The notes: a model not told the origin generated them from the letters alone. A stretch of DNA of 64,000 nucleotides from Flavobacteriales bacterium (GCA_031411095.1 JANOAK010000023.1:13896-77895); one strand, 5' to 3'. Positions 4,602 through 41,231 are shown, numbered from the stretch's first letter. Program-made: numbers and translations.

Positions 4602-7600
4602 TCAGCGCACCAGGTTCACGTGTCCGAAGACCGTGCGCTTCTTTCCATTGAGCTCGGTAAGATCCACGCGCCACACATAGGTATCGATCGGCGAGCTTAC
4701 ACCATGGTAAGAGCCGTCCCACGACTGGCTGAGCTGTGTTGCTGCGAAGATCTCCTCGCCCCAGCGGTTGAACACGAGCAGCCGGAACTCCTTCACCTCC
4801 GTGGCCCTGGCGGAGAAGCTGTCGTTCACGCCATCGCCGTTCGGGGTGAAGGTGTTGGGAACGAAGAGCGAACCGTTCACGAACACCGTGACCTGATCGG
4901 TCGCCCTGCAGCCGTTGGCGTCGATCAACACCACCGTATAGGTGGTGGAACTGAGCGGTTCAGCCACGGGGGCAACACACGAATCGCATGAGAGGGTGAG
5001 CGCCGGCGACCAGATCATGGTGCCATTGCCGAGCCCCACGAGCTGGGCCTGGTCGCCGAAGTCGATGCCCGAGTCCTGCCCGGCATTGACCGTGGGCGCC
5101 GGGAACACGTTCACCGTGGTGGTGGCCGCGGCCGTGCAGCCCAGTGCATCGCTCACCATTACCGTGTACGTGGTGGAAGCCTGCACCGTGGCCTCCGTCA
5201 CGGCGGCATCGGGATCGCTTAGACCGGTCGTAGGGGACCACGCATAAAATGCACCGCCGCTCGCGGACAGCGTCACTTGCTCGTTCGGGCACACGGTGGT
5301 GTCGGGCCAGGCCAGCGCCACCACTTGGCGCACATCAACAAAGGCGCTGTCCGCGACGCTGCCGCAGGTATTGCTCAAGGTCACCACGTAGTATTGATCT
5401 GCTTGAGGCGACACCACGGGATCGGCGATGTTGAGGTCGGAAATGCCCGGTGCTGCCTGCCATGCATAGGTGGTTCCGCCCTGTGCAAGGAGTTGCACGG
5501 ATCCGCCCAGGCACACCGCGGTGTCGCCAACGATGGGCACGGGGACATCCACCTCCACGTTCACCACCAAGGTGTCCTGCACCACGCATCCTTCCGGGGT
5601 GGTGATGGTGACAACATAGTGCGTGGTGTCCAAAGGACTGGCCAGGGGACTTTGTGCCGTGGGGTCATCGAGTGAGTTCGCCGGGCTCCAGGCATAGGTG
5701 CCGCCACCGATGGCGGTGATGGGGACGGGTTGCCCGGCGCAGGTGAGCGTATCGGGTCCCGCTTCACCGAAGGGTATGCCCACGATGATGTCGATGGTCG
5801 CCGTATCGGTCCCGCAACTGTCCGTTATGATCACGGAGTAGGTGATCGAGCTGTCGGCCGTAACAAAGGGATCTGCGCTGGTCGGATCGCTGAGCCCGGT
5901 GGTGGGGGACCAGAGGAATATATGGCCACCATGCGCGTGCAGCTGGATGGTGGCACCATCGCAGATGGGTTGTACCGGATCGATCGAGGGTTCCTGTGGC
6001 GCGATGACGTGGATGGTGATGGTCCCTGTGTCGGTAGGGGTGCAACTGCTGCTATCGTCGAGCAGCATCACCACGGTATAGGTACCGGGGTCGGTGTACG
6101 TGTGCTGCGGCTCGAACGCAGTGGAGGTGGTGCTGTCGCCGAAGTGCCACAGTTGCTGTGAGCCCCCCACGCTGTTATTGATGAACTGCACCGTGCCCGA
6201 TACGCAGATCACATCGGGACCGTCGATGGAGATGAAGGCCTCGGGCTGGCCCAGGTTGAACTTGAACACGCCGAGGTTGCAATTGAAGCTGTTGTTGGTG
6301 TTGCTCCAGGCACCTGCGGTGGTGGGGAAGTCACTGTTGCCACCGCAACCGGCGCAAACGGCCTGGTACACGTTGCCGTTCTTATCGAAGCGGCTTGTGC
6401 CGCCATCCACGTGTTCCGCACTGGTGCCCCCGCCGAAGAACGTGGCATAGTTCAGCGACACGGCCTCGGGGTTGAGCACCATGAGGTAGAAGTCGCTTCC
6501 GTCCGTGTTCGGTTGGTACGCGTCGGCCGTTACCGGAAGGCCGGTGGTTGTACTGAAGTCGGCGTTCACGAACGTGTTCACGGAACCGCCCCAGCCGCTG
6601 AAGTAGATCTGGTCGCAGTTGCTCACCAGGAATGCGCTGGGCGAGATGTCCTCATTGCCATTGCCGTTGCCGATCACGGTGCTCCATAGTGAAGTGGAGA
6701 GGTCGGTGGAGAGCTTGTGGATGAACTGTGAACTGCCGGGGTTGGTGTATTTGCCGGGTGTTACGGGATACGCCCCGTGCGTCTGGCCGACCACATATAC
6801 CTCATCCTGCGTGTCCAACTGCACGAAGAAGCATTGGTCATAGCTCGCTGTGCCCAGGTAAGTAGAGCCGAGCAACTGTCCTGCTGCGGAATAGCGCATG
6901 GCATAGCCGTCCACTGTGCCGGCGTTCGAGTTGTCAAAGGTGGTGCCGGCCATGGGCAGGTCGCTGCTGGCGGTACCACCTGTAAGGTAAATGTCGCCGG
7001 TGCTGCTGACCTGTACACCATTCCCACTATCGCCCTGTGATCCGCCACAATAGGTGGCGAACTGGAGGCTGGTGAGATCGGCGCTCAGACGGAACAGGAT
7101 AGCGTCCAGGTCGCCGCCACCGAAAGCCTGTTGCGCCGTGCCAGCGGTGGTGGGCATATCGAAGCTCTGGGTGCTGGAGGCCACCACCGGTCGTTCCAGC
7201 GCATCGAGGGTGATCTCTCCGCGGAAGTGATCGCCGTAGTTATGCACCAGGGCCGCGCTCTGGTCCAGGCCGTCGTTGTTCGTCCCGCCCACGTAGGTGC
7301 CGCCGATCAACACCGTTGCGTCCGCGGAAAGATGCGCCACGGCGATGTCGGTGCCGAAGTCGAACCCATAGCCTTCGCCGGAGAAGAGGTTCACGAAACC
7401 GCCTGTGAGCGGGATCTGCGTGCCGCCATTGAACGTGGGATCGAAGCAACCTGGTGAGGTGGGGAAGTCGAACGAGCCGGTGACGGACAACACGAAGAGC
7501 TCGTTCGCGCTGTTGACCACCAGGCTGTTCGGCGTTTCATTGTTCGAGCCGCCGAGGTAGGTGCTCCATTCCAGCAGGGTGCCATCGGGCGACCACTTGC

Positions 7601-8534
7601 TCACACCGATGTCGATGTCCAGCCCGGCGAACGTGGGTTGCAAAACCCCGAGGGTGGTCGGGTAACCGAAGTCGAACACGATGCCACCGCCGTACAACGC
7701 GCCATCATTGTCATAGGTCGCCGTGAAGCCGAAGTTGTCCCCTGTGCTGCCGCTGTAGCTGCCGAAGGTGAGCTCCGGATCGATCGTCAATGGCAATCCC
7801 TTGATCATCTTCACGTCGTACGTCACCGTGTTGCCGCGGAGGCGATAAGCGGAAGGCCTTGGGATGCGTTTGTTGTCGATGCCGTCGAAGAACGGTGCCC
7901 AGGAGACCGGTGCCTCTTCCTCCACAGTGCCCGCCGTGGTGGTCACCAGCAGGCTCCCCTCCTTCAAGTACAATCCATCCTGACCGTCGAAGCGCATCCG
8001 GATCACCGACGGATCCGCATCGGGCTGAACGAGGAATTCGTACTTCAGGCCCTCTGTCCCATCCAAGCGCAGGTCGATGCCCGGGTAGAGGTCGTGCAAC
8101 ACCACCACCCCGAACACAAGGCAATGGGTGCCCCATTTGGCGGGGTCCTTTCCGAGGAAGAAATTCTCGTACTGTGGCTGAGCGTGGCTGCCCACACCCC
8201 TGGCGGGCCGTGCCCCTTCGAACGTGACGCGGTAGGCGTGGGCGCGGCACGGCTCCTCGGCCTCTGCAGGATCATGGCCGTGGTGGGCCAGGGGTCCGCC
8301 CTGTATGAGTTCGAAGGTGAACGCGTCCTTCTCCACGAACAATGCACCACCCGGGAACAGACAGCGGTACAACACCTGCTCCGGCCATTGGCCCCGGTTC
8401 TCCGTGAAGGTGGCCACAGGCCGCTCCCCCGCAGTGGCGGAAAGGGCGAAAAGGCCGAGGAGAAGGGAGACGAGGGGGCGCACGCAGGGGGCTCGTGGAA
8501 AGGTACCGAAAGTTAAGACCCCATTGGCAGGCAT
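4602..8534 (-). CDS. Giant cell-surface protein with beta-propeller, PKD/Ig-like domains and a T9SS type-B (CHU_C / gliding-motility) C-terminal domain
   Basis: N-terminal signal peptide, SBBP-like repeats, repeated Ig/PKD-like modules. C-terminal ...FVPNTFTPNGDGVNDSF...FNRWGEEIF...WDG motif. Confidence 0.75.
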   Translation of the reverse strand: MPANGVLTFGTFPRAPCVRPLVSLLLGLFALSATAGERPVATFTENRGQWPEQVLYRCLFPGGALFVEKDAFTFELIQGGPLAHHGHDPAEAEEPCRAHAYRVTFEGARPARGVGSHAQPQYENFFLGKDPAKWGTHCLVFGVVVLHDLYPGIDLRLDGTEGLKYEFLVQPDADPSVIRMRFDGQDGLYLKEGSLLVTTTAGTVEEEAPVSWAPFFDGIDNKRIPRPSAYRLRGNTVTYDVKMIKGLPLTIDPELTFGSYSGSTGDNFGFTATYDNDGALYGGGIVFDFGYPTTLGVLQPTFAGLDIDIGVSKWSPDGTLLEWSTYLGGSNNETPNSLVVNSANELFVLSVTGSFDFPTSPGCFDPTFNGGTQIPLTGGFVNLFSGEGYGFDFGTDIAVAHLSADATVLIGGTYVGGTNNDGLDQSAALVHNYGDHFRGEITLDALERPVVASSTQSFDMPTTAGTAQQAFGGGDLDAILFRLSADLTSLQFATYCGGSQGDSGNGVQVSSTGDIYLTGGTASSDLPMAGTTFDNSNAGTVDGYAMRYSAAGQLLGSTYLGTASYDQCFFVQLDTQDEVYVVGQTHGAYPVTPGKYTNPGSSQFIHKLSTDLSTSLWSTVIGNGNGNEDISPSAFLVSNCDQIYFSGWGGSVNTFVNADFSTTTGLPVTADAYQPNTDGSDFYLMVLNPEAVSLNYATFFGGGTSAEHVDGGTSRFDKNGNVYQAVCAGCGGNSDFPTTAGAWSNTNNSFNCNLGVFKFNLGQPEAFISIDGPDVICVSGTVQFINNSVGGSQQLWHFGDSTTSTAFEPQHTYTDPGTYTVVMLLDDSSSCTPTDTGTITIHVIAPQEPSIDPVQPICDGATIQLHAHGGHIFLWSPTTGLSDPTSADPFVTADSSITYSVIITDSCGTDTATIDIIVGIPFGEAGPDTLTCAGQPVPITAIGGGTYAWSPANSLDDPTAQSPLASPLDTTHYVVTITTPEGCVVQDTLVVNVEVDVPVPIVGDTAVCLGGSVQLLAQGGTTYAWQAAPGISDLNIADPVVSPQADQYYVVTLSNTCGSVADSAFVDVRQVVALAWPDTTVCPNEQVTLSASGGAFYAWSPTTGLSDPDAAVTEATVQASTTYTVMVSDALGCTAAATTTVNVFPAPTVNAGQDSGIDFGDQAQLVGLGNGTMIWSPALTLSCDSCVAPVAEPLSSTTYTVVLIDANGCRATDQVTVFVNGSLFVPNTFTPNGDGVNDSFSARATEVKEFRLLVFNRWGEEIFAATQLSQSWDGSYHGVSSPIDTYVWRVDLTELNGKKRTVFGHVNLVR

Positions 8535-8698
8535 TTGGTTGCTTTCGTGCGCTGGATGGGGGATCCCGGCCTACCCGGCGGCAGGGTGTACTTTCGCAGT
8601 GCGAACGCGCAGAACAGGTGGACCTTTCCCCCGTCCGCTACCTGCGATGCTTCAGCGCACCACGTTCACCCACTCCCAGTGAGCTACGGCAGCAACCC

Positions 8699-10639
8699 AT
8701 GAGCGACGCGATCAAACACGAATGTGGCCTGGCCTTCATCCGCTTGCGCAAGCCACTTCACCACTATCAGCAGAAATACGGCAGCGCCTTCCACGGCATC
8801 AACAAGCTGTTCCTGCTGATGGAAAAACAGCACAATCGCGGCCAGGACGGTGCGGGAGTGGCGGTGATCAAGCTGGACCCGGAGCCGGGCGACAACTACA
8901 TCGATCGCACGCGCAGCACGGACAAGCAGGCCATCCAGAAGATCTTCGGGGGGATCCAAAAAGGTTATCAGAACGCGATCGACAAGGACCCTTCCCTGGC
9001 CGGTGATGTGGAGCGCTTGAAGGCCGAGGTCCCTTTCCTGGGCGAGGTGCTGTTGGGCCACTTGCGCTACGCAACGTATGGAGCGGACGGATTGGAGAAC
9101 TGCCACCCGCGCCGCCGCCTCAGCAATTGGATCACCCGCAACCTTGTGCTGGCAGGCAACTTCAACATGACCAATGTGGACGAGCTGTTCGCATTGCTCG
9201 TGAGCATCGGTCAGCACCCCAAGGAGCATAGCGACACGATGACGGTGCTCGAGAAGATCGGGCACTACCTGGATGTGGAGAACGACCGCCTGCGCCAGAT
9301 ACACACACACCTGGGTTACACCGACCCGCAGATCACGCAGGTGATCGGAGAGAAGATGGATGTGCGCGAGATCCTGCGGATGAGCGCACTCGATTTCGAT
9401 GGTGGCTATGCATTCGCCGGGTTGATCGGCCATGGCGATGCTTTCGTGCTGCGTGATCCCGCCGGCATCCGGCCGTGCTTCTGGTACGCCGATGACGAGT
9501 TCGTGGTGGCTGCGAGCGAGCGCCCCGCGATACAGACCGCCTTTGGCGTGAAGACCGATCAGGTGCAGGAACTACGCCCCGGCCATGCGTTGATCGTGAG
9601 GAAGAACGGGAGCTTCAGTGAAGAACAGGTGCGCGAGCCGGTGGAGAAACGCGCATGCAGCTTCGAACGGATCTACTTCAGCCGCGGAAGTGATCGCGAT
9701 GTATACCGCGAGCGGATCGCCTTGGGCCGCAACGTGGTGCCCGCCATCCTGGAAGCGGTGGACCACGACCTGCAGAACACCGTGTTCAGTTTCATTCCGA
9801 ACACGGCGGAAGTGGCCTGCATCGGCATGCTGAAGGGCCTTGAGGACGAACTGGTGAAGACCAAGGAACGCCTCATCGGCGAAATGGGGCCCACCCCGGC
9901 CCCCGGTCGCTTGCGCGAGATCCTGAACATGCGTCCGCGCCTGGAGAAGGTGGCGATCAAGGACGCGAAGCTGCGCACCTTCATCACAGCGGACATTGCG
10001 CGCGATGAACTGGTGGCGCACGTATATGACATCACCTATGGCACGGTGCGTCCGGGCCTGGACAACCTGGTGGTGATCGACGACAGCATTGTGCGCGGCA
10101 CCACCTTGAAACAGAGCATCCTGAAGATGCTCGACAGACTGGAGCCGAAGCGCATCGTGGTGGTGAGCAGCGCGCCGCAGATCCGCTATCCGGATTGCTA
10201 CGGCATCGATATGGCCAAGATGGGCGACCTCGTGGCTTTCCAGGCGGCCATTGCCTTGCTGCGCGAAACGAAGCAGGACAACATCATCGAGGATGTGTAC
10301 GACCGGTGCCTCGCCAACGTGGGCAAACCACTGGTGCCGCTGCCGGGTGCGCCCGGAGGCGGTGGTCCCTCCCCGTGGGTGGACAATGCGGTGAAGGACA
10401 TCTATGCACCGTTCACCGCGGAGCAGATCAGCGCGAAGATCACCGAGCTGCTCACGCCTGAGGGCATGCGGGCGGAGGTGCGCATCGTGTACCAGAGCAT
10501 CGAAGGCTTGCGCTCGGCGTGTCCGCAACACACCGGTGATTGGTATTTCACAGGCAACTATCCCACCCCGGGCGGCAACCGCGTGGTGAACCGTGCTTTC
10601 ATCAATTGGATGGAGGGAAGGAACGTGCGGGCGTATTGA
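8699..10639 (+). CDS. purF: Amidophosphoribosyltransferase (long Bacteroidota-type class-II glutamine amidotransferase)
   Basis: MSDAIKHECGLAFIRL Ntn-Cys start. PRTase motif LVVIDDSIVRGTT. Start moved to the internal ATG at 8699. Confidence 0.7.
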   Translation: MSDAIKHECGLAFIRLRKPLHHYQQKYGSAFHGINKLFLLMEKQHNRGQDGAGVAVIKLDPEPGDNYIDRTRSTDKQAIQKIFGGIQKGYQNAIDKDPSLAGDVERLKAEVPFLGEVLLGHLRYATYGADGLENCHPRRRLSNWITRNLVLAGNFNMTNVDELFALLVSIGQHPKEHSDTMTVLEKIGHYLDVENDRLRQIHTHLGYTDPQITQVIGEKMDVREILRMSALDFDGGYAFAGLIGHGDAFVLRDPAGIRPCFWYADDEFVVAASERPAIQTAFGVKTDQVQELRPGHALIVRKNGSFSEEQVREPVEKRACSFERIYFSRGSDRDVYRERIALGRNVVPAILEAVDHDLQNTVFSFIPNTAEVACIGMLKGLEDELVKTKERLIGEMGPTPAPGRLREILNMRPRLEKVAIKDAKLRTFITADIARDELVAHVYDITYGTVRPGLDNLVVIDDSIVRGTTLKQSILKMLDRLEPKRIVVVSSAPQIRYPDCYGIDMAKMGDLVAFQAAIALLRETKQDNIIEDVYDRCLANVGKPLVPLPGAPGGGGPSPWVDNAVKDIYAPFTAEQISAKITELLTPEGMRAEVRIVYQSIEGLRSACPQHTGDWYFTGNYPTPGGNRVVNRAFINWMEGRNVRAY

Positions 10640-27280: not shown

Positions 27281-27494
27281 TGGGGCGCAGAGCACCCGTG
27301 CAGAAAATGACCGATGCAATAGGCTTATTCCACCACTAAGCCGCAGGGTCATCCGCTCATCCAGGCTAAAGGCATGGATAGCGGAGAGATCAGGGCGTAT
27401 GCGGGAGGGCCCTGCACGGGCTGTGGATCCCCAGGCAAAGACTCGCATGGAGTGCAGCCACGGCACCGACAGGGGCATGGTTCAATTGTTGAGC

Positions 27495-27890
27495 AACGTA
27501 GGGCCCATGTTCGGCCGCAGTGCGCTAATGTTGGCCAACAATCCCCCGATGTTGGGCAATATTCGGCTGATGTTGGAGAACAATGCCCCCATGTTGGTCA
27601 ACATTCCCCCGATGTTGGACAACAATGTCCTGATGTGGGCTAACATTCCGCTGATGTTCGGCAACAATGCCCTGGTGTTGGTCAACATTCCGCCGATGTT
27701 GGGCAACACTGCCCTGATGTGGGGCAACATTCCGCTGATGTCGGACAACGAGCCACCTATGTAGATCAACATTCCGCTGTTGTTGGACAACGATCCACCG
27801 ATGTGGGTCAACATTCCCCTGATGTTGGGCAACACTGCCCTGATGTGGGTCAACATCCCGCTGAAGTTGGACAACAAACCCCCAATGCCA
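27495..27890. repeat. 21-bp tandem repeat (~19 copies; consensus CAACA(A/T)TCCNCTGATGTTGGG) = heptad period
   Basis: Direct reading of the sequence. The minus-strand frame stays open through the whole array (ORF 27482..28153, LPNIGGM/LTNTRAL heptads). The plus-strand frame contains a stop at ~27762. Confidence 0.85.
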
Positions 27891-27984
27891 GCACGCTGCA
27901 GCATTCGACGGCGCCGGTCGTGAGGTTCAAGCGCCAGTAGTATCGCAGCTGCCTGCGTGCCAGGGCAGCGGGGATCACCGACAA

Positions 27985-28021
27985 CTCGGGGCAGGCCGGC
28001 AAGAAGAAGGGGCGGAAGGAG
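27985..28021 (+). repeat. ~35-bp direct repeat copy A (..GGGGCAGGCCGGCAAGAAGAAGGGGCGGAAGGAG)
   Basis: One of three same-orientation copies (also ~31316-31348 and ~31923-31958), all intergenic, bounding gene modules of the island. Confidence 0.7.
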
Positions 28022-28146
28022 AACGGTCAAGCGCACGAGCGTTGACGCTTGCGCGAGTTGTGGGTTTTCCACAGCCAGGCGGACTATGAATGCGACGACG
28101 TTACTTTGAGCATCGGAGATTGACGATTTCCCCGCCATCAACAGCA

Positions 28147-29841
28147 ATGACAACCGCTCAGTTGACCCTCCTCGACCAGAGCGAGCTCTTGGAGCTTGTT
28201 CCTGCGCTTCCGCCGATTGAGGAAGGGGACAACCTCGGCGCCGTCTTCACCAAGGAATGGGTGGTGGATCTGATGCTCGATCTCTGCGACTATCGCGCGG
28301 AACATGACCTGTCGAAGATCCGGCTCTTGGAACCGTCCTGTGGTGATGGCGCGTTCCTCCAGTGCATCGTGAAGCGCCTGTCAACTTCGTTACGCACACA
28401 TGGCCACACCCTGAGCGATGCCCGCAACGCTATCCGCGCGTACGATCTGCAAAGCCGCAATGTGCAGGCTGCGCGCGAGCGAGTCGCGGAATTGCTCTTA
28501 GCTGACGGCTGGAACAACGTGAACGATCTCGTTGTGCACTGGATCCGCCACGCCGACTACCTGCTTGCACCCGACCCACCCCACTTCGATCTGGTGATCG
28601 GCAACCCGCCTTACATCCGTGCGCAGGAGATACCCGATGAGCGGCGCAACACCTACATCCGACTGTGGGACACCATGACCATGGGCACCGACATCTTCGT
28701 CGGCTTCATCGAGAAGGGCCTTCGCTCCTTGAAGCCCGAGGGCCGTCTGTGCTTCATCGTTGCGGATCGCTGGCAGCACAACGCCTACGGACGCAAACTC
28801 CGCAAGCTCATCAGCGAGCGCTACGCCGTGGATGCCATGTTCGAGATGCACGGCGTCGATGCCTTCGCAGCGCCCGTATCCGCGTATCCGGCGATCACCC
28901 TCATCCGGAGTGGCAAGCAGGGGTCTGTTCGGTACGCCAGCGCGCAGAGCGATCTCAACGCAGAAGGCGGGGAACGGCTCAAGGAATGGTTCGGACAGAA
29001 TGAGCCCGGTGCGACGCACGACCCGATGTTCTCGGCCTGCGTGCTGCCCGATTGGTTCCGCACCGAGGAGATCTGGCCCAGCGGCTCGCCTGAAGTGCTG
29101 GCCTTCCTGGAGGACATGTCCGAGCGCTTCCAAACGTTGGAAGATGCAACCACCGGTACCAAAGTGGGCATCGGCATTGCCACCGGTGCTGATGAGGTCT
29201 TCATCACCGATGATGCGGACTGCGTCGAAGCTGAGCGGTTGATTCCGCTGCTCACCTCAGCGGACATCACCACGGGCCGCGTGCGATGGAAAGGCAACTA
29301 CCTCGTGAACCCTTGGGACGAAAGTGGTCAGTTGGTTGACTTGTCGCATCGTCCCAAGTTGAGCGCCTATTTCGAGAAGCATTCGCCCATCCTGCGGAAG
29401 CGCCATGTGGCACAGAAGCGCATGGAACGCTGGTACGGTACCATCGACAAAGTGCATGCAGGCTTGCGCGAACGGCCCAAGCTGGTGCTGCAGGACATGA
29501 GCAGCACCATATCACCCGTGCTTGATACGCAGAACTATCCGCACCACAATCTGTACTGGATAACGAGCAGGGTGTGGGACCTCGAGGTGCTTGGTGGTCT
29601 CTTGCTTTCGGAAGTCGCCGAGTTATTCGTGCGCGCCTATGGCGTGAAAATGCGCAACGGCACCATGCGCTTCCAATCACAATACTTGCGCATGATCAGG
29701 GTGCCCGCTCCTTCAAGCCTCTCAACGGATCTTCAGGAGCGCTTGCGCACCGCTTTCCGAGAACGCGACCGCGCGATGGCCACACAAGCCGCATTGCTCG
29801 CCTACAATCTGGAGACGCTACCGAATTTCAAGGGGCGATGA
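28147..29841 (+). CDS. N6-adenine-specific DNA methyltransferase (gamma-class, Eco57I/TaqI-like)
   Basis: Motif I LEPSCGDGAFL and motif IV GNPPYIR. Start probably at MTTAQL (ORF opens at 28090). Confidence 0.8.
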   Translation: MTTAQLTLLDQSELLELVPALPPIEEGDNLGAVFTKEWVVDLMLDLCDYRAEHDLSKIRLLEPSCGDGAFLQCIVKRLSTSLRTHGHTLSDARNAIRAYDLQSRNVQAARERVAELLLADGWNNVNDLVVHWIRHADYLLAPDPPHFDLVIGNPPYIRAQEIPDERRNTYIRLWDTMTMGTDIFVGFIEKGLRSLKPEGRLCFIVADRWQHNAYGRKLRKLISERYAVDAMFEMHGVDAFAAPVSAYPAITLIRSGKQGSVRYASAQSDLNAEGGERLKEWFGQNEPGATHDPMFSACVLPDWFRTEEIWPSGSPEVLAFLEDMSERFQTLEDATTGTKVGIGIATGADEVFITDDADCVEAERLIPLLTSADITTGRVRWKGNYLVNPWDESGQLVDLSHRPKLSAYFEKHSPILRKRHVAQKRMERWYGTIDKVHAGLRERPKLVLQDMSSTISPVLDTQNYPHHNLYWITSRVWDLEVLGGLLLSEVAELFVRAYGVKMRNGTMRFQSQYLRMIRVPAPSSLSTDLQERLRTAFRERDRAMATQAALLAYNLETLPNFKGR

Positions 29842-30542
29842 AGAAGGACCATCGAAAGGAAGTCCTAGCCCTGTGGAAGCTGAGGTCCAAGGCGGAGAAG
29901 AAGGCGCGCAAGGGAGGCAACACCGACCCCGGTCTTCGCGCAGGCGTGACTTCTGGCCGACACTTGGACCCCTTGTCCCAGCTGATGCGAAGCATCTTCA
30001 TCGATGCGGGCATACCGGCGGCGGATGTGCATTGCGGGAGCACGAACTTGGAGATACCCGGATTCTATCGACCGCAGAAGAAGTGGGATGTGGTAGTAGT
30101 ACACAAGGGTGTACTGGTGGCGGCCGTGGAGTTCAAGAGCATTTTGGGTAGCTACGGCAACAACATGAACAACCGTACCGAGGAATCCCTGGGGAACGCT
30201 ACTGATCTGCTAGAAGCCGCCGAACAAGGCCTCATCGGCACAAGACCGCCGTGGCTGGGCTTCGTCTTCTTCATGCAGGATGATGAGCGCTCCCGCAAAG
30301 GAGGCAAGAGCGCCAAGCAACCGCATTTCAGTATCGATCCCGAATTCGTTGGCGCGAACTATCAGAGCCGCGCTTCGATCTGGTTGCGGCGCTTGCTGAT
30401 GAAGCGGCTCTACAACGCTGCTTGGTATGCATTGGTCGATCCTGCACAGGGTGTGGAGGGTGTGCGCGAGCCGGATGCCGAACTAAGTTGGGCCAAGTTC
30501 GAGGCAGCGATACGTGGAAGGGTTGGGGAGGTGTTGGCGTAG
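29838..30542 (+). CDS. Putative type II restriction endonuclease (PaeR7I/XhoI-like size and context)
   Basis: ATGA overlap with the MTase stop. 234 aa, acidic/Lys-rich core. Assignment rests on synteny and size, not on a recognised catalytic motif. Confidence 0.45.
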   Translation: MKKDHRKEVLALWKLRSKAEKKARKGGNTDPGLRAGVTSGRHLDPLSQLMRSIFIDAGIPAADVHCGSTNLEIPGFYRPQKKWDVVVVHKGVLVAAVEFKSILGSYGNNMNNRTEESLGNATDLLEAAEQGLIGTRPPWLGFVFFMQDDERSRKGGKSAKQPHFSIDPEFVGANYQSRASIWLRRLLMKRLYNAAWYALVDPAQGVEGVREPDAELSWAKFEAAIRGRVGEVLA

Positions 30543-30625: not shown

Positions 30626-31243
30626 ATGACAGCAATCCGGCACGCACTTCAAGGAGCAAGGGAGCAGTTCGACTTCTGTACGCATGCACTGTCGTACTTT
30701 GAGAAGAAGGATGAATCATCCCGGAAGGTTGGAGCGAACGTCATTCTTCAGTCCGGCCGTGCTATCACGTATGGCATGGAGACCTTGGCCAAAGCCAGCC
30801 ATGAATTCGCGACGTGGTACAGGCCATATGGAGCTGAGCTGCATGCTGATCCCATTCTGAAGTATTTCCGGGAAGTCCGGAATGTGATTGTTCACCGGTC
30901 TGGCAGGATTGAGTTGAACCACATCTCAACCGTACCCATTAATGACCCCAAGCCAGGAGCCATCGAGGAACTCATCGCCGACGGTTCGACCATTGACCAT
31001 ATGAACATCGACTTTCTCAAGAACAGGAGATACTTGGTTGTCCGAACCCCCTATGGAAGGCGGGAAGAGAGGGACGTTCCTCAAAGGCGGGAAGGACCGT
31101 GGTGGCTGTTGGTCGATGTACAATCCTACTTCAAAGACGCCCCAGTGGAGTTCGCGGGCGTAACAGTGGTTGAAAGTTGCCAGCGGTATGTGCGTTTCCT
31201 TGGTCGTCTAATCCAGGATGCTGAAGTCAGGTTTGGCATGTAG
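30626..31243 (+). CDS. Hypothetical protein (possible HEPN-like Rx4H motif), island cargo
   Basis: Lower-GC ORF after the R-M pair. RNVIVH motif. No confident homology. Confidence 0.35.
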   Translation: MTAIRHALQGAREQFDFCTHALSYFEKKDESSRKVGANVILQSGRAITYGMETLAKASHEFATWYRPYGAELHADPILKYFREVRNVIVHRSGRIELNHISTVPINDPKPGAIEELIADGSTIDHMNIDFLKNRRYLVVRTPYGRREERDVPQRREGPWWLLVDVQSYFKDAPVEFAGVTVVESCQRYVRFLGRLIQDAEVRFGM

Positions 31244-31315: not shown

Positions 31316-31348
31316 CTGGGGACTGGCAAGAAGAAGGGGAGGAGGTAG
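31316..31348 (+). repeat. ~35-bp direct repeat copy B
   Basis: CTGGGGACTGGCAAGAAGAAGGGGAGGAGGTAG. Intergenic, between the hypothetical gene and the RusA-like gene. Confidence 0.7.
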
Positions 31349-31408
31349 ACTGGGGAGTAAGTTCGAAGACGCCGGGGCTCCACCTCGGGACACCATGGCG
31401 GATTAGAC

Positions 31409-31873
31409 TCACGTAGAGTCCTGCCGTCGAACACAGAAGAAAATGCCCGGTGGCTCTTGGACGTGTTTAGAAGCTTCGATGTGAAAGACCTGCTTGTCAT
31501 CGACAAACAGTATACCCTTCACACAATCAAGAAGCGTCTTGACCATATTGTCCAGGTCAACACGTTGCACGTATTCCCTGGGGCCATTGATTGAGATCAA
31601 GACATTCAGTCTCTCTTGGTACGGCATATCAGCATCGCGCCCCAGTAATTCGACCTGCTTCCTAAGAGCTTCAACGAAGGGCCGATACCGTTCCTTTCGG
31701 TTCTTCATTTGGCCCGTTGGCAACGGAGTGTCAAGAATGGCCATAAACACCTTCTCCCACCCCACCGTGTAAAAGGTAGCCGGCGATTCTAGTCTATCCT
31801 CCTCGGGAATCTCCTCCGGTGGAATGGAGGAGACCTGTCCCTCGCGGAGAAAGTCGAGCATTCGGGGTTTCAT
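31409..31873 (-). CDS. RusA-like Holliday-junction resolvase (endodeoxyribonuclease)
   Basis: ...VDLDNMVKTLLDCVKGILFVDDKQVFHIEASK matches the RusA catalytic Asp cluster. Typical phage/island gene. Confidence 0.5.
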   Translation of the reverse strand: MKPRMLDFLREGQVSSIPPEEIPEEDRLESPATFYTVGWEKVFMAILDTPLPTGQMKNRKERYRPFVEALRKQVELLGRDADMPYQERLNVLISINGPREYVQRVDLDNMVKTLLDCVKGILFVDDKQVFHIEASKHVQEPPGIFFCVRRQDST

Positions 31874-31922: not shown

Positions 31923-31958
31923 CCGCTTCACAACGGGGACTACGCAAGAAGAAGGGGC
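31923..31958 (+). repeat. ~35-bp direct repeat copy C
   Basis: ACGGGGACTACGCAAGAAGAAGGGGCGGAAGTAGAG. Intergenic, between the RusA-like and HNH-domain genes. Confidence 0.7.
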
Positions 31959-31983
31959 GGAAGTAGAGCGGGATGGTGGCTGG

Positions 31984-33156
31984 TCAGCCGCGCTTGCCGG
32001 TTGCAGGGTTGAGGCGATGCAGAACCCAAGGAGTTATCACTTCCATTATCGACTTAACCACTTCATCAATCATCGCAGTGGTAATAGTTGTGCCGTCCGG
32101 GTATTTTCCGAGGGATTGCTGAATGGCTCGCCCGATGAGACCTTCCCGATGACTGTCTTCTTGCCTCTCCATAGCAATTGAGAGGACACGATGAAATCTC
32201 CGGCGCACCTCGTCAAACGGTTTGGCATCCTTGCGGATGAAGAGGTCAGTAAGCTGGTCCCGGGTATAACGAAGCGATATTGTTCGGTCTCTCTCAAGGT
32301 TCGCCACGACGTCGTACACGTACGTCTTGTCCAGTTCTCTACCGTCATAGTTGTCGTTCAATCGCACAATGAAATTGCGAGTGTTGAACAGTTCCACGTA
32401 TGCATAAAGTACCCTTTGCGCCGGATCGCCAACTAGCCGCAAGACATGGCTTACTTCTGTCCGGCCGGATTCATAGATGGGTTTCACGGGATAGTGCATC
32501 CACACAACATCTTGATCGTTGCTCCCTTCCACATAAGGCAACAGATGAGCGATGTGTTTCCTCAGACCACCTCGGTAAGTGAAGTAGCCGATCGCGATCT
32601 TGGTAATTGCACGGAAGACCTCCTTACTTCCCACATTAGCTTCAAAGTGGATCCTATCATCCAGATAGTCCTGCGACCGAGTAGCGGACTTGATTGCCGC
32701 CTCAACATCCAACTGAGCATATTTGCGCTTAAACCCGTTTAGGATCCTGCGAAACTCGCTCTCATCTCTTGCTGAGATAGAAATCGTAATCTGGTCGCCA
32801 TCGATTACTTCTTCAACAGTCGGTTTGGCCATTCTAGGGCTTCCATCTCGCTCAAGCGAAACGGCTTCACCGGTTGAGGTCAGCGTCCCTCGTATTGGTT
32901 GTGGCTCTCCTCTATCACGTTTGATGATCAGGAGGTTGGCCAAGTCATTGTTCTGATCGCTCAGCGCATTATCAACCTCAGAGCCAAACCTCGAATTGCA
33001 TGTCCGGCAGAGAATCTTCGCCTTGAGCCATCCTCCACAAGCATTGGGGATGATGTGCTCCTTGCTTGCGTTGGTGCTCGAGAGGATTGTATCGCAACGA
33101 TAGCATCGTTCATTTGGCATTGTTCTATGGTTTGGCCGGTGAAGCAACGAAGGCAT
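31984..33156 (-). CDS. HNH-endonuclease-domain protein with a large uncharacterised C-terminal domain
   Basis: N-terminal CYRCDTILSSTNASKEHIIPNACGG...CRTCNSRFG (C-x2-C...H...C-x2-C HNH signature). Start at 33120 or 33156. Low GC. Confidence 0.6.
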   Translation of the reverse strand: MPSLLHRPNHRTMPNERCYRCDTILSSTNASKEHIIPNACGGWLKAKILCRTCNSRFGSEVDNALSDQNNDLANLLIIKRDRGEPQPIRGTLTSTGEAVSLERDGSPRMAKPTVEEVIDGDQITISISARDESEFRRILNGFKRKYAQLDVEAAIKSATRSQDYLDDRIHFEANVGSKEVFRAITKIAIGYFTYRGGLRKHIAHLLPYVEGSNDQDVVWMHYPVKPIYESGRTEVSHVLRLVGDPAQRVLYAYVELFNTRNFIVRLNDNYDGRELDKTYVYDVVANLERDRTISLRYTRDQLTDLFIRKDAKPFDEVRRRFHRVLSIAMERQEDSHREGLIGRAIQQSLGKYPDGTTITTAMIDEVVKSIMEVITPWVLHRLNPATGKRG

Positions 33157-33306
33157 TGGGATTGAAGTCAGATAGCCGACGTTCTCAGATGTGGCGGAGC
33201 GAAAATGCACGCGCGATAATCAGGACGGTGTAGCGACTGAGCAGGGGCCGGTTGCCTAGGTGGGAGTTCCATTGATGTAAGGGTATCATGCTCTATCTCC
33301 TTCGGC

Positions 33307-36081
33307 CTATCGGTAGAGATCAACAAAGGCCCTTTCCAGTTGAGGATCTCGATGTTCTTGGAGGTGTGCCGAAAGCTGTACGCGGATGGCGTCGTGTTTG
33401 CGCATCTCGGCGAAGTAGTATTTGGTTGGATACGCAGCAATCCACTTTACATCGAACAGCGTATAGTCAAAGCCGGCCATGTCAAGGAGCCAGTCATAGT
33501 AGCTGTCGAAGCCGCGCAAGCCAGAGAATCTCTCGTGCCTAAGGTCGATGCCTTCCTTGAAGCACAGATTGATGAACATATCCAAGATGAGACGGCGTTT
33601 ATCTTCCTCTCCAGACATGGCCGTTCTGAAAGTAGGGTGGTCGTGAACAGGATGGGCGGCTAGGAGCAGCTTGTCGAGGAACTCGTCCTCGACCTGCAGT
33701 ACATCGTGGATAACAGCATCATAGTAGAGGTCTGGTTCAAATCTGTTTCTCAGCCGTGCCTCGATGCTCTGTTCGATCATCCCCCTGGACTCAGCATTGG
33801 ATGAAAGCCGGTGTATCGGAATCAACCAATCGCCTGGATGCTCGTGCTTGCAGAGGGGGCATTTTCCGGTGGTCAGGTCAATGAAGCGTTTAACCTCGGC
33901 TTTGGAAAGGGCCATTTGGCCATGATGTCTCAATGCTTCGGACAGAGCACCAAGCATATTCTCGTCGTGCAACTTCTGGGTCTTGGGAACGCTGCGTAGC
34001 AAGGCCTCCAACGTTGCCTTATCAATCAGTTTGGCCTTCCTGTGTACGAATCGTTGAATGTGTTCAGTGATACCGCGATTGAGCAAGGTGTTGGCACGGA
34101 GAGCCTCTGGTAGCTTGCGGGCAATTACATTCACATCGGCTGCATTCAAGTTCGATAGCGACGCTAGTACGAAGAGGTTGTCGACCAATGTGTTGTACTT
34201 CTGAATGAAGGACGTGTTGGTCTTGCCAAACGACTTCCTGAAAGCCTTGGCCACTTCAATGGCATCATCGAGAATTCGAGTAATCACGGCCACTAACGAT
34301 TCGCCGGACGAGGCCGATGGTTTGTACTGAATCTCCTTGAGATGGTGGCGATGGAAGTGTTTCAGAATGCGCTTCGGTTCGCTGTGCCATACCAATTTGT
34401 TAATTATCCAGTCGTCAAAATGGGGCAAACGACTCTTCTGCTCAGGTGCAATAGCATGCGAGGCGAAGAGACCCTCGCTGAAAATGTCCGTAATCTGGCG
34501 GTACTCATCGAAGCAATCGAAGTACACGAAGTCCTTGCTCAGGAATTCATCCAGGTCAGCGTAGTCCTTGATCAACTCACTGATGTGACTGTTCGAGCTC
34601 CAGCCACCCCGTAGCTGGCTATGATAGTGGTCCCGTATCTCAGTGACCGTCTTGTACAAGACATACATCGTTTCCGAATGGAAACGCCCCTTGTCGATCC
34701 ATTCGTGAAAGCGACTGTTTTTGTCCGCCTTCGGCAGGGTCATTCGAATCGCCGCAAGATCTATCGTGGCGAGTCGTTCGATTAACGCGGTAGGCTCCTG
34801 CTCCCCCCAGTAGTTGTTTCGAAGGTGCGGCCTCAGTTTGGACAAGCTATACGAACTGAGGACGTATTGCGACCACTCCTCTTTGCGCTTATGTTCTGCA
34901 CTTGCTTGCTCAAGCAACTCCGCAGCCTCAACGAAGTTGCCAAGCTTGTAGTGGGAGTAGGCCAAGAGCTGGAGATTGTTCGTCTTGTCGACCCCTATTG
35001 AGATAGCCGCGAAGGCTCCCCGAAAATCCAGTCGATCTATTCGGCACCTCACGCAATCACACTTTACGCTATCACTGTAGCGGACGCTTGCCCACTCGCG
35101 TGACTTGTGAGCAGCGATGTAGAAGACAAGGCTGGACGAAAGGCGCTTGAGGATGTAACGAATCTTTTTCTGCGGATTGGTGACCCCCTTTGTCCAGGAG
35201 CTGTCATTGAACTGCACCTTGCCCGGGCCAGTAATTTTCACGGCCTTGAACAGATCGATCAGCTCCTCATTGTCAACCGTCAGGGTGAATTGATCATGGC
35301 GTGGATGGAATGAACTGCTCACACGGAAAGGATAGCTCCGTGTGAAGTACTCACTTGGCATATGGTGCAGTTCACCGAACCGCTCGAACATGTACCGATA
35401 GAGTTGTTCCAGGATCGGTCGAGTGCGGTCGACGGAAATCTGAACGGTATCCTCTCCAAGAAGATGGCGGCTGCGATCTTGTAGCTGGCGTTCGAACAGA
35501 AATTGCTTGCTTGCTTCGATATCTTTCTTGAGGCTGATCAATCGCTTTGGTAGCAGCCTGCCGTTCTTTCGAAGGCAACGCTGAGGATCAATGCGTATTT
35601 GAATGCTCTCGCCATCCCGACGTGACTGACCGCTGGCAATAGATTCGACTTTGCTTGCATACCCGTGGTCGAAGTCTAGTTGAATGGGGCACCAGTAAAT
35701 GGACTTGGTCTTCAAGTCGCAAACTGTCACAATGCAAACATTTTCGTGGTCTTTGGCGAGATATCGGAGTGTCTCAGCACGATCAATCTTGTGGGTGAGA
35801 AATCCCTTGTTGGCGCCTCTGACCTTCTCTGCTAGCGCCTTGTCAGTTCCCTTGTTCTGGATAAATACCGTTTGTATAAGGTCAAGGGAGGGAAGATCAT
35901 CGGGAGTCTTCGCCGTTGTGTTTTGAAATTCTACGGCAAAGTCGATTCCCCTCTCTTTGTGATATTGGTTAAACTTCAATTCGCTCTTTGTAGACTGAGA
36001 AAGTTCCCGTAACGTACCCTGCATGAGTTCGTTCGCTTCGTCTTCGATCTCATCTGTTGTTTTGGGGCGCTTGTTCATCAA
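33307..36081 (-). CDS. 924-aa protein with N-terminal DUF4365-like (restriction-endonuclease-fold) domain, long alpha-helical middle region and C-terminal Cys-rich motifs
   Basis: N-terminus ...ERGIDFAVEF...VFIQNKGTDK... fits the D-E-(Q)K nuclease-like pattern. No P-loop. CPLCKHEH and CDCVRCR motifs. GC ~50% versus a ~65% background. Same strand as, and adjacent to, the HNH-domain gene. Confidence 0.55.
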   Translation of the reverse strand: MMNKRPKTTDEIEDEANELMQGTLRELSQSTKSELKFNQYHKERGIDFAVEFQNTTAKTPDDLPSLDLIQTVFIQNKGTDKALAEKVRGANKGFLTHKIDRAETLRYLAKDHENVCIVTVCDLKTKSIYWCPIQLDFDHGYASKVESIASGQSRRDGESIQIRIDPQRCLRKNGRLLPKRLISLKKDIEASKQFLFERQLQDRSRHLLGEDTVQISVDRTRPILEQLYRYMFERFGELHHMPSEYFTRSYPFRVSSSFHPRHDQFTLTVDNEELIDLFKAVKITGPGKVQFNDSSWTKGVTNPQKKIRYILKRLSSSLVFYIAAHKSREWASVRYSDSVKCDCVRCRIDRLDFRGAFAAISIGVDKTNNLQLLAYSHYKLGNFVEAAELLEQASAEHKRKEEWSQYVLSSYSLSKLRPHLRNNYWGEQEPTALIERLATIDLAAIRMTLPKADKNSRFHEWIDKGRFHSETMYVLYKTVTEIRDHYHSQLRGGWSSNSHISELIKDYADLDEFLSKDFVYFDCFDEYRQITDIFSEGLFASHAIAPEQKSRLPHFDDWIINKLVWHSEPKRILKHFHRHHLKEIQYKPSASSGESLVAVITRILDDAIEVAKAFRKSFGKTNTSFIQKYNTLVDNLFVLASLSNLNAADVNVIARKLPEALRANTLLNRGITEHIQRFVHRKAKLIDKATLEALLRSVPKTQKLHDENMLGALSEALRHHGQMALSKAEVKRFIDLTTGKCPLCKHEHPGDWLIPIHRLSSNAESRGMIEQSIEARLRNRFEPDLYYDAVIHDVLQVEDEFLDKLLLAAHPVHDHPTFRTAMSGEEDKRRLILDMFINLCFKEGIDLRHERFSGLRGFDSYYDWLLDMAGFDYTLFDVKWIAAYPTKYYFAEMRKHDAIRVQLSAHLQEHRDPQLERAFVDLYR

Positions 36082-39287: not shown

Positions 39288-41231
39288 CTATGCACCTTCG
39301 GAGCTTCGATGGACGAAGTACATCTCCATCTCCCCCTTGCCTTTTGCCTGCACCTTTCCGCGCGCCGTGAACGCCAGGCCCGGCTCTTCCTTTACCAGCG
39401 CATAGGTCGCCTCGCTGATGTTCACCTGTCCCACTTCACCGGAGGATTCCATACGCGCTGCGATGTTCACCGTATCGCCCCAGATGTCGTAGGCGAACTT
39501 CTTCACGCCCACGATGCCCGCCACCACAGGGCCGGTGTGGAGGCCCACGCGCATCTCGAAGGCCGGTTCGCCTTGTGCATCGCGTTCCGCCTTCCGTGCG
39601 ATCATGTAGGCTTGCATTTCCAGTGCTGCTTGAACGACACCTATTGGTGTTGATGACGATGGAACAGGCAATCCGCCTGCACACATGTAGGCATCGCCGA
39701 TGGTCTTGATCTTCTCTATGCCACGCGCGGTGATGATGTGATCGAAGGCTTTGAAGCAGGTGTTCAATTCCTCCACGAGCTCCGTGGGAGAGAGTCGCTC
39801 GGCCACGGAGGTGAAGCCTTTGAAGTCCGTGAAGAGGATGGTGACGCTGGCGAATTGCTTCGCATCAGCGTGCCCCTTCGCTTTCAGTTCATCCGCCACC
39901 TCCTCCGGAAGGATGTTGAGCAACAGTTCATCACTGCGCTTCAATGCCTTCTGGGTGCGACGGCGCTGGCGGTAGCTGATGGAACCGAAGATCACGGACA
40001 CCAGTCCGGCACCTAAAAGGACGTTGCGGCGGGTGCGCTCCTTTTGCAGGAGGTTCGCAGCGGCTTCGTCCTCCAAGCGGCGCAGCGCGTTCGCTGCCTC
40101 CTCCTTGTAGTTGTTCTCGATGCGCTGCAGGTTCGTGGCCGCCGAGGTCAGGTTCATGCTGTCGCGGATCGCGATGTATTCAGCCCGGTGATCATACGCG
40201 CTGCGATAGTCTCCCAGTGCGATGGCGATCGAGTCCATCACCTGGTGATAGCACTGCTGTGAGAATTTGGAGCGGTGGAAGGCGGGATCGGAGGTCATGG
40301 TCCCGGCCACTGCCCTGGCCCGCTCCGGCTTACCGCTGTGCAATTCGTACCAGGCCTGTTCCATCACGCAAAGGGGACAGAGATACCGAGGCTGATCCAT
40401 ACGATCGAGAACGGCGTTCATGCTGTCCAGCAAGGGCCCCGCTCGATCGTGGCGGTCGCGCTGCCGCTCGATACCCGCGAGAAGCGCGTAACCGACCGGA
40501 ACGCTCGGGTCGGATCGCAGGCTCGTGATCAAGCGCATTGCTTCGTGCAAGTGCGGTCCGATGGAGTCGAACCTGCCCAATTGCTGGAGCTCCGCGGCTA
40601 TGTAGATATGGCCCCAGCACATCAGCGCCGTGTCGCCCACCCGCATCCCGTGACTGATCATCCGGGCCGAATAGGTCAACGAACGGTCCCACTGTTTCAC
40701 ATTGTCATACGCCTGCGCCAGTTGTATGTACAGGTCGGGTACCTGGTCGATCAGGACCTGTCGCGCGTCCAACCGGAGCGCCTCTTCGCGGTAGCTGAGC
40801 GCCTTGGCCAGGTCACGCTCGCGCGCCATGGTCATGTTGCTCATGCGGTTCAGCAGGGCGAACATCATCACCGTGTCCTCGCGGGCCTTCGCATCGTCCA
40901 GCATGGAATCAAGTTCCGCTTGATAGCTCTGCGTGAACGGTGGCAGGGACATCGCATAGGCCCGCGCCTCCGTCGCTTCCATCAGCACGGGTAGCCTGTG
41001 GCGTGCGAAAGGGGAGCGCAGCATGTCCGCGGTGATCCGCTCCAGGGCGATCGTGTCCTTCCGTTCTAACGCCGGCTCAAGGCTGTCCTCGAGCACCGCA
41101 AAGGCGGCGGAATCAGCCAGCGTGTAGCCATGGTCCCGTGTGGCAGGGGTCTTCCGATCGGAAGGTGTGCAACCATTGAACGCCGCACATGCGAAGAAGA
41201 GGTGGAGGAGGATCGCGGTGGAGCGGTTCAC
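39288..41231 (-). CDS. Class III adenylate/guanylate cyclase with N-terminal TPR-like sensor region and a TM segment
   Basis: C-terminal CHD domain: FTDFKGFT...IKTIGDAYM...GLHTGPVVAGIVG...YDIWGDTVNIAARMES. Confidence 0.8.
   Translation of the reverse strand: MNRSTAILLHLFFACAAFNGCTPSDRKTPATRDHGYTLADSAAFAVLEDSLEPALERKDTIALERITADMLRSPFARHRLPVLMEATEARAYAMSLPPFTQSYQAELDSMLDDAKAREDTVMMFALLNRMSNMTMARERDLAKALSYREEALRLDARQVLIDQVPDLYIQLAQAYDNVKQWDRSLTYSARMISHGMRVGDTALMCWGHIYIAAELQQLGRFDSIGPHLHEAMRLITSLRSDPSVPVGYALLAGIERQRDRHDRAGPLLDSMNAVLDRMDQPRYLCPLCVMEQAWYELHSGKPERARAVAGTMTSDPAFHRSKFSQQCYHQVMDSIAIALGDYRSAYDHRAEYIAIRDSMNLTSAATNLQRIENNYKEEAANALRRLEDEAAANLLQKERTRRNVLLGAGLVSVIFGSISYRQRRRTQKALKRSDELLLNILPEEVADELKAKGHADAKQFASVTILFTDFKGFTSVAERLSPTELVEELNTCFKAFDHIITARGIEKIKTIGDAYMCAGGLPVPSSSTPIGVVQAALEMQAYMIARKAERDAQGEPAFEMRVGLHTGPVVAGIVGVKKFAYDIWGDTVNIAARMESSGEVGQVNISEATYALVKEEPGLAFTARGKVQAKGKGEMEMYFVHRSSEGA

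Follow-up and report, generated by a model that had tools for sequence, protein, structure and literature searches.

A candidate single-gene anti-phage protein joining a DSR2-type sensor to a predicted DUF4365/DREN nuclease in a Flavobacteriales insert

We analysed a 64,000-nucleotide stretch of DNA from a Flavobacteriales bacterium (GCA_031411095.1 JANOAK010000023.1:13896-77895), hereafter the window, in which a preliminary description made from the sequence alone had proposed an undescribed two-gene defence module consisting of a large nuclease-like protein and an HNH-domain protein. Translation confirmed the two open reading frames (ORFs) on the same strand, at 31984-33210 and 33307-36081, and both genes resemble defence cargo or mobile-element cargo carried in a foreign insert of low guanine-cytosine (GC) content, as had been supposed. 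The larger ORF comprises 924 codons when counted from a TTG and encodes 923 residues when counted from the ATG at 36078, and the same 923-residue product (P0001) was called on other contigs. The smaller gene had been read as encoding 408 residues. Its longest ORF does extend over 31984-33210 on the minus strand, but translation most likely begins at the ATG at 33120, for a predicted product of 378 residues, because homologues begin about 5 residues before the first CxxC and another gene caller agrees on identical DNA. The two genes and the predicted parts of the large protein are as follows.

33307-36081, minus strand: gene of the large protein, a putative DSR2-like effector-sensor of 923 residues (ATG at 36078, stop codon at 33307-33309)
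35554-36078, minus strand: N-terminal effector domain of the large protein, residues 1 to about 175, a predicted PD-(D/E)xK nuclease of the DUF4365/DREN type with D46, E50, Q74-N-K76 and D121
35029-35430, minus strand: alpha/beta linker subdomain, residues about 217-350, with the CxCxxC motif (C340, C342, C345), delimited by the secondary structure of the model
33310-35028, minus strand: helical MID bundle and HEAT-like C-terminal sensor, residues about 351-923, homologous to DSR2 residues of about 422-1002
31984-33120, minus strand: HNH gene, 378 residues, with a Pfam HNH_5 domain and a C-terminal domain of about 300 residues

When the first relatives to be found were aligned with the large protein, conservation extended from about residue 217 to the end, forming a core, while the N-termini differed between members. 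An input of seven sequences gave an AlphaFold2 (AF2) model with a predicted local distance difference test score (pLDDT) of 64 and a profile without any PDB match, and an alignment of 80 sequences was needed to obtain a model with a pLDDT of 91.9 and a predicted template modelling score (pTM) of 0.80. When this model was compared with the PDB using Foldseek, all 49 matches at E<=1e-3 corresponded to Bacillus subtilis DSR2, the lowest E value being 2e-10 and the alignments spanning about 800 columns; DSR2 was the only strong fold match. The same relationship was recovered at the sequence level: an hmmsearch of the 80-sequence family profile against the PDB detected DSR2 chains with E values of 1.7e-8 to 3.8e-7 over residues 422-1002, and the next match stood at 0.11. 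One member of the family (P0008) bridges the two proteins, as it carries a SIR2 domain whose best PDB match is DSR2 (E 9e-37) and also contains the full core (hhalign probability 99.4, 666 columns). In addition, the near-invariant motif YYxWL..FxYxxFxxxW (residues 860-879) has a counterpart in DSR2, YDFFVDPENFDYKKFIPSW, and FDYxxFxxxW is common to both. According to the model and these comparisons, the C-terminal ~710 residues, formed by the CxCxxC linker, the helical bundle and a HEAT-like solenoid, are homologous to the MID and C-terminal domain (CTD) of DSR2. The preliminary description had seen there about 600 residues of helical sequence with cysteine motifs; the motifs, CDCVRC (340-345) and CPLCKHEH (740-747), are indeed present, but the region is not anonymous, since it adopts the predicted DSR2 MID-CTD fold.

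Of 150 relatives, about 85% retain the CxCxxC motif and about 60% the second one. Each of C340, C342 and C345 is preserved in 121-124 of some 140 relatives in the alignment and is invariant in the closest 15. CxCxxC is a probable metal-binding site, and the sensor region holds an optional cluster (C740/C743/H747/C839), which occurs in about 60% of relatives. A search for the Walker A motif ([AG]x4GK[ST]) in the large protein was negative, in agreement with the earlier observation that it has no P-loop. Scans of the large protein with Pfam, PADLOC, NCBIfam and PHROG models gave nothing beyond a sub-threshold TPR match.

The N-terminus had been described as having a restriction-endonuclease fold, and this was borne out. 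We assigned it to the DUF4365 type because its N-terminal relatives match PF14280, the D..E..QxK motif is conserved and the predicted fold agrees. Specifically, PF14280 was detected in members of the same N-terminal BLAST cluster (P0122 at 1e-13, P0231 at 5e-10, and P0007 in precomputed annotation), P0004, which is 65% identical to the large protein, bears the NCBI name of a DUF4365 protein, and the PADLOC Aga_REase models match the N-termini of P0171 and P0007. Among 44 aligned N-termini of the DUF4365 type, D46, Q74 and K76 are kept in all (44/44), D121 in 41 and E50 in 35. The large protein itself has a predicted PD-(D/E)xK fold and carries the catalytic residues of the D..E..QxK motif, and its Q-x-K corresponds to Q62/K64 of TmuRE, a DUF4365 protein of a short-Argonaute system in which these two residues were the predicted active site and were mutated to inactivate the protein (PMC10810196).

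In order to define the extent of the family, the core profile was searched exhaustively against 1.84 billion representatives. The core family amounted to 843 representative clusters, 509 of them at E<=1e-30, which overturned the idea of a tiny family derived from a word-indexed search that had returned 8 relatives. Nearly all members measure 880-960 residues, with an N-terminal domain of 160-260 residues, and most come from Bacteroidota and metagenomes. The N-terminal domains of 125 members fell into PIN_12 (56), DUF4365 (43, including that of the window) and a class without assignment (14), with TIR_2, SMEK_N, SIR2_2, caspase-like and MmeI_N as further classes. The MmeI_N head was found in a 965-residue family member encoded at 6404-9301 of a Hymenobacter tibetensis plasmid (L048, NZ_CP094674.1). 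The core family is therefore modular, with swappable N-terminal effectors. Its neighbours include integrase, bNACHT, AbiEi, Mrr_cat and restriction-modification (R-M) genes as well as insertion sequence elements, and no relative of the large protein was present in the phage collection searched.

Several loci of the family showed further peculiarities. The plasmid protein with the MmeI_N head is labelled 'type IIL restriction-modification enzyme MmeI'; the similarity to MmeI_N is confined to the first ~180 residues, and no methyltransferase domain match was found in it, so the label is probably a misannotation. At two loci (L020, 9281-14070, and L033, 1100-5747) the DSR2-like gene is directly followed by one for a 635-residue SIR2_2 protein with BLAST similarity to the family; such pairs look like tandem paralogues with different effectors, and the first gene of the L033 pair seems to be broken into two ORFs. 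Short ORFs of about 172 residues (L021/L041) and about 109 residues (L044-L047) show similarity to the final ~140-180 residues of the core alone and are likely decayed remnants of DSR2-like genes.

Taken as a whole, these results make it fairly probable that the 923-residue protein belongs to the DSR2 superfamily and serves as a single-gene effector-sensor against phages, with a DUF4365/DREN nuclease in place of the SIR2 NADase. DSR2 (PDB 8k98, 8wy8, 8z18) consists of a SIR2 domain, a MID formed by a linker and a helical bundle, and a HEAT-like CTD, and is a tetramer; its CTD captures the phage tail tube protein, which activates the NADase, and its MID/CTD part holds the oligomer together, as described in PMC11850899 and in abstracts. 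DSAD1 is an inhibitor of DSR2. The large protein has the same MID and HEAT-like CTD architecture and, with the 80-sequence profile, the same sensor-region sequence homology, which neither the 7-sequence profile nor the PADLOC models detected. Like DSR2 it is a single gene with no conserved partner over 38 loci, with the caveat of an R-M adjacency specific to one clade. In contrast to DSR2, it has no SIR2 match in Pfam or PADLOC and carries a predicted PD-(D/E)xK nuclease at its N-terminus, its output would be DNA cleavage instead of NAD+ depletion, and its family is centred on Bacteroidota and not on Bacillus. Thus, it lies outside the DSR2 family proper, since it lacks the sirtuin, and inside a wider DSR2 sensor superfamily, and its mode of action is probably that of DSR2, but with another output.

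Other systems share parts of this organisation. The DUF4365(DREN)-APAZ proteins of SPARDA have the same kind of N-terminal nuclease with a QxK site, and there too SIR2, TIR, DUF4365 and SMEK effectors are interchangeably fused to a sensor-coupling module; the SPARDA nuclease is unleashed non-specifically once the target is recognised (PMC10810196). Unlike SPARDA, the large protein has neither an APAZ domain nor a prokaryotic Argonaute (pAgo) partner, and its sensor is predicted to be an all-helical solenoid of the DSR2 type. The short-pAgo/APAZ assignment suggested by the common effector repertoire was consequently rejected, the core being all-helical and matching DSR2 and not APAZ/PIWI, and no Piwi or APAZ match appeared in Pfam scans of 10 ORFs between 26.7 and 42.5 kb. 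The model would lead one to expect recognition of a protein and not of a guide-directed nucleic acid. Avs and the bacterial NLR-like STAND proteins also couple a swappable N-terminal effector to a sensor of helical repeats at the C-terminus, through which conserved phage proteins are bound, but the large protein has no NTPase or Walker A motif and no STAND or NACHT match in Pfam or PADLOC, and this candidate was rejected for lack of the NTPase. Lamassu, Septu, Gabija, Hachiman and Shedu were rejected because no PADLOC matches were obtained. The earlier statement that no named system is matched held for the PADLOC check, in which neither of the two proteins matched any model, and for the NCBIfam and PHROG defence models, but not for the remote match of the large protein to DSR2.

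Modelled on DSR2 and on the DUF4365 nuclease of SPARDA, the most likely mechanism would be one in which a resting oligomer keeps the nuclease inactive, binding of a phage-encoded protein to the solenoid rearranges the N-terminal domains, and the freed nuclease cuts DNA non-specifically and aborts the infection. The oligomeric state, trigger, substrate and abortive outcome are all extrapolated from these two systems, and the trigger would not necessarily be the tail tube protein. Several observations weigh against this interpretation. With an identity to DSR2 of only about 11%, the protein may bind another ligand and may even form a different oligomer; the PADLOC models match no family core; the window protein has no Pfam DUF4365 (PF14280) match at E<=0.01; and neither CxCxxC nor the CxxC..H..C cluster is noted in the single DSR2 paper searched for 'zinc' (PMC11850899), an absence that, for CxCxxC, may reflect a different regulatory input. 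Furthermore, co-transcription of the HNH and large genes stays compatible with the sequence, and a type IIG R-M gene often adjoins members of the sub-clade to which the window protein belongs, some of which may not act alone.

Regarding the second gene, the HNH Cys/His signature reported for its product was confirmed by a Pfam HNH_5 match (PF14279, E 7e-14, 52 bits against a cut-off of 27.5). The residues C6, C9, C38, C41, E21-H22, N26 and N42 are conserved among 27 relatives and provide the four cysteine zinc ligands and the catalytic His/Asn expected of an HNH nuclease. The family comprises 113 full-length clusters of about 375 residues, conserved end to end, from Bacteroidota, Firmicutes and Proteobacteria. 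Its relatives occur in three chromosomal loci, among TIR-Mrr, DUF4238, HEPN/ApeA and transposase genes, and on 11 viral or prophage contigs of IMG/VR (L049-L059), where no neighbour is conserved. The C-terminal domain gave no Pfam, PADLOC or PDB sequence match. Septu, which pairs the ATPase PtuA with the HNH protein PtuB, resembles this case in having an HNH nuclease in a defence context, and one of the 27 HNH relatives has a marginal PtuB match (E 0.003). On the other hand, no ATPase gene adjoins the HNH gene of the window, neither window protein matches PtuA or PtuB, and the HNH family has its own conserved C-terminal domain of about 300 residues and no conserved neighbour. To judge from this distribution, the HNH protein is an uncharacterised single-gene nuclease carried by prophages and defence islands.

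The gene calls of the HNH gene differ between records. The NCBI/Logan record of the source genome (P0009) gives it as 282 residues; this deposited annotation hides the HNH domain because the call starts downstream of it, while the 378-residue call fits the homologues. An apparent variant on contig L004 was rejected, as it was only another gene call on identical DNA. On three of the viral contigs (L052, L054, L055) a related gene of 340-431 residues lies 0.2-0.4 kb downstream of the HNH relative, and its identity as an integrase was unconfirmed by BLAST.

The remaining elements of the insert lie to the left of the HNH gene.

28090-29841, plus strand: Eco57I/TaqI_C-family N6-adenine methyltransferase (Pfam Eco57I 2e-20, PADLOC MTase_II 1.6e-172)
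about 29838-30542, plus strand: XhoI-family endonuclease (Pfam XhoI 1.6e-46, PADLOC REase_II 2.8e-49)
30626-31243, plus strand: ORF of 205 residues containing RNVIVH, from translation
31409-31873, minus strand: RusA-family Holliday-junction resolvase gene (Pfam RusA 5e-11, PHROG 140 2e-14)
27999-28026 (plus strand, copy 1), 31326-31353 and 31944-31971: 28-nucleotide intergenic repeat GCAAGAAGAAGGGGCGGAAG..., from a repeat search

These matches agree with the R-M system and RusA gene that had been placed next to the two genes. Between 28090 and 30542, a cognate methyltransferase gene and an XhoI-family endonuclease gene overlap by 4 bp, in calls made on identical contigs, and constitute a type II R-M system. 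The RusA gene is a phage-type cargo neighbour outside the system. The 205-residue ORF had been suggested as a third component; the ORF and its RNVIVH motif exist, but it has no match in Pfam, PADLOC, NCBIfam or PHROG, apart from a weak precomputed Ea47 match, and no relative in any other locus of the large-protein family. The two genes do lie in a low-GC stretch (0.50-0.52 at 32-36 kb), although the flanks measure 0.60-0.63 and not 0.65 as first estimated. The right flank carries a formate-dehydrogenase alpha gene with 87-92% identity to copies from uncultured Flavobacteriales, and this identity together with the GC content indicates that the host is a high-GC Bacteroidota metagenome-assembled genome and that the insert is foreign.

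The 28-nucleotide repeat has three matches against 0.01 expected by chance. Its copies mark the junctions between cassettes, namely ahead of the R-M pair and on either side of RusA, towards the 205-residue ORF and towards the HNH gene, and they may reflect serial insertions at one hotspot or a common regulatory or terminator element. Just left of the R-M pair, an ORF on the minus strand (27482-28153) contains about 17 tandem 21-nucleotide units at 27523-27882, also readable with periods of 42 or 126 nucleotides, and corresponds to a heptapeptide-repeat protein with only weak tape-measure-like PHROG matches. In the flank of host GC content, adjoining the formate dehydrogenase gene, a gene on the minus strand (39288-41231) encodes a 647-residue protein with a class III adenylate/guanylate cyclase domain, whose best PADLOC match is PycC (4.5e-17), in the catalytic domain.

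We then considered whether the large gene and the HNH gene could form one co-transcribed and interdependent system, in which the 923-residue protein would act as sensor or scaffold and the HNH protein as a second nuclease. Both genes lie on the same strand within the lowest-GC stretch, the gap between them is 96-186 nucleotides, a scan of the minus strand found no terminator-like site in this gap, and neither protein matches a known system. In order to determine whether the pairing recurs, we examined 38 loci with a relative of the large protein, of which 8 were taken from species-representative genomes (all Bacteroidota), 25 from metagenomes and the others from exact-protein look-ups. A hidden Markov model of the HNH family matched the window and none of the 37 other loci, and no neighbour family was conserved across the 38. 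Even the closest relatives from other genomes, at 65-70% identity, have different neighbours and lack the HNH gene. Conversely, no relative of the large protein was found near the HNH gene in 14 HNH loci, 3 chromosomal and 11 viral. The two families also differ in size, with 843 representative clusters for the large protein against 113 for the HNH protein, and HNH relatives are common on viral contigs while the large family is not. The co-occurrence analysis proposed in the preliminary description therefore gave no repeated pairing, and the two results named there in advance as speaking against a module, homologues that are not co-localised and a match, here a remote one, to an already named system, were both obtained. 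On this comparison of loci, the two-gene reading is largely refuted and we regard an interdependent pair as very improbable; the HNH gene appears to be separate, stand-alone single-gene cargo that landed beside the large gene in this one genome. An explanation outside immunity was judged still less probable: the large protein could be a maintenance factor of a mobile element, an addiction nuclease or a decayed remnant without function, given that its gene sits among phage-type cargo (RusA and the weak Ea47-like match) and that other genomes contain truncated family members reduced to a C-terminal piece (L021/L041, L044-L047). Its reading frame, however, runs uninterrupted over the full length and retains the catalytic motif and every residue conserved in the family, the 843 clusters are of conserved length, the effectors of the family (SIR2, TIR, PIN, DREN, SMEK, caspase) are typical of immune proteins, and its homology is to an experimentally proven defence protein.

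A different partner was suggested by the genomic context of the relatives. In a rough neighbour-joining tree of the cores, with a small sample of 11 loci inside the sub-clade of the window protein and 14 outside, an Eco57I/MmeI-type R-M gene (type IIG, ISP or methyltransferase) was found near 7 of the 11 sub-clade loci, window included, and near none of the 14 outside (Fisher p about 7e-4). In four loci (L007, L006/L024, L026 and L027) the R-M gene lies immediately upstream and shares 4 bp with the beginning of the DSR2-like gene, even though the N-terminal effector types differ among the four; in L005 the R-M gene is convergent, and L001/L015 have a divergent type ISP enzyme. The plasmid homologue that uses an MmeI_N nuclease domain as its effector also fits such a link. 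These arrangements raise the possibility, which we consider unlikely but worth retaining, that the DSR2-like protein is no autonomous sensor and instead serves the adjacent R-M enzyme as an accessory or guard, monitoring either that enzyme or phage anti-restriction proteins and firing its nuclease when restriction is subverted. PrrC with EcoprrI is an analogue of such an arrangement. The window counts among the seven through its Eco57I-family methyltransferase, which lies 3.5 kb away; its R-M system, however, is a classical split methyltransferase and endonuclease pair of the XhoI type, on the opposite strand and separated by three unrelated genes. Moreover, most members have no adjacent R-M gene (all 14 outside the sub-clade, plus L016, L023 and L014), and defence islands often contain R-M genes in any case. 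The tree is also crude, the number of loci small, and DSR2 itself acts without a partner. A broader proposal, which we put forward as tentative and rather doubtful, is that Eco57I/MmeI-type R-M enzymes (type IIG/IIL/ISP) operate in functional partnership with a clade of DSR2-like sensors, the window protein among them. If it were true, these sensors would provide a second layer that detects a phage protein defeating or escaping restriction, or the state of the R-M enzyme itself, in the form of a protein-sensing abortive module hard-wired to R-M and firing a nuclease, PIN or TIR effector.

Setting this coupling aside and returning to the single-gene effector-sensor, DSR2 is among the best-understood cases of direct recognition of a phage structural protein and has so far been treated as a sirtuin system. 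A literature search in a limited collection found no description of DSR2 relatives with non-SIR2 effectors, and neither PADLOC-DB 2.0.0 nor the scanned Pfam models detect the family core. The principle of modular effectors is familiar, but the DSR2 chassis was not previously known as modular, and the family built on it is large and unannotated. The analysis corrects a tempting but wrong operon call joining the HNH and large proteins, flags a possible link between these sensors and type IIG R-M systems, and supplies a missing family for defence-annotation tools. Altogether, these results widen the distribution of DSR2-type sensing and provide natural chimeras in which one sensor fold controls chemically unrelated effectors, and they suggest that the DSR2 sensor scaffold serves as a general chassis for unrelated heads.

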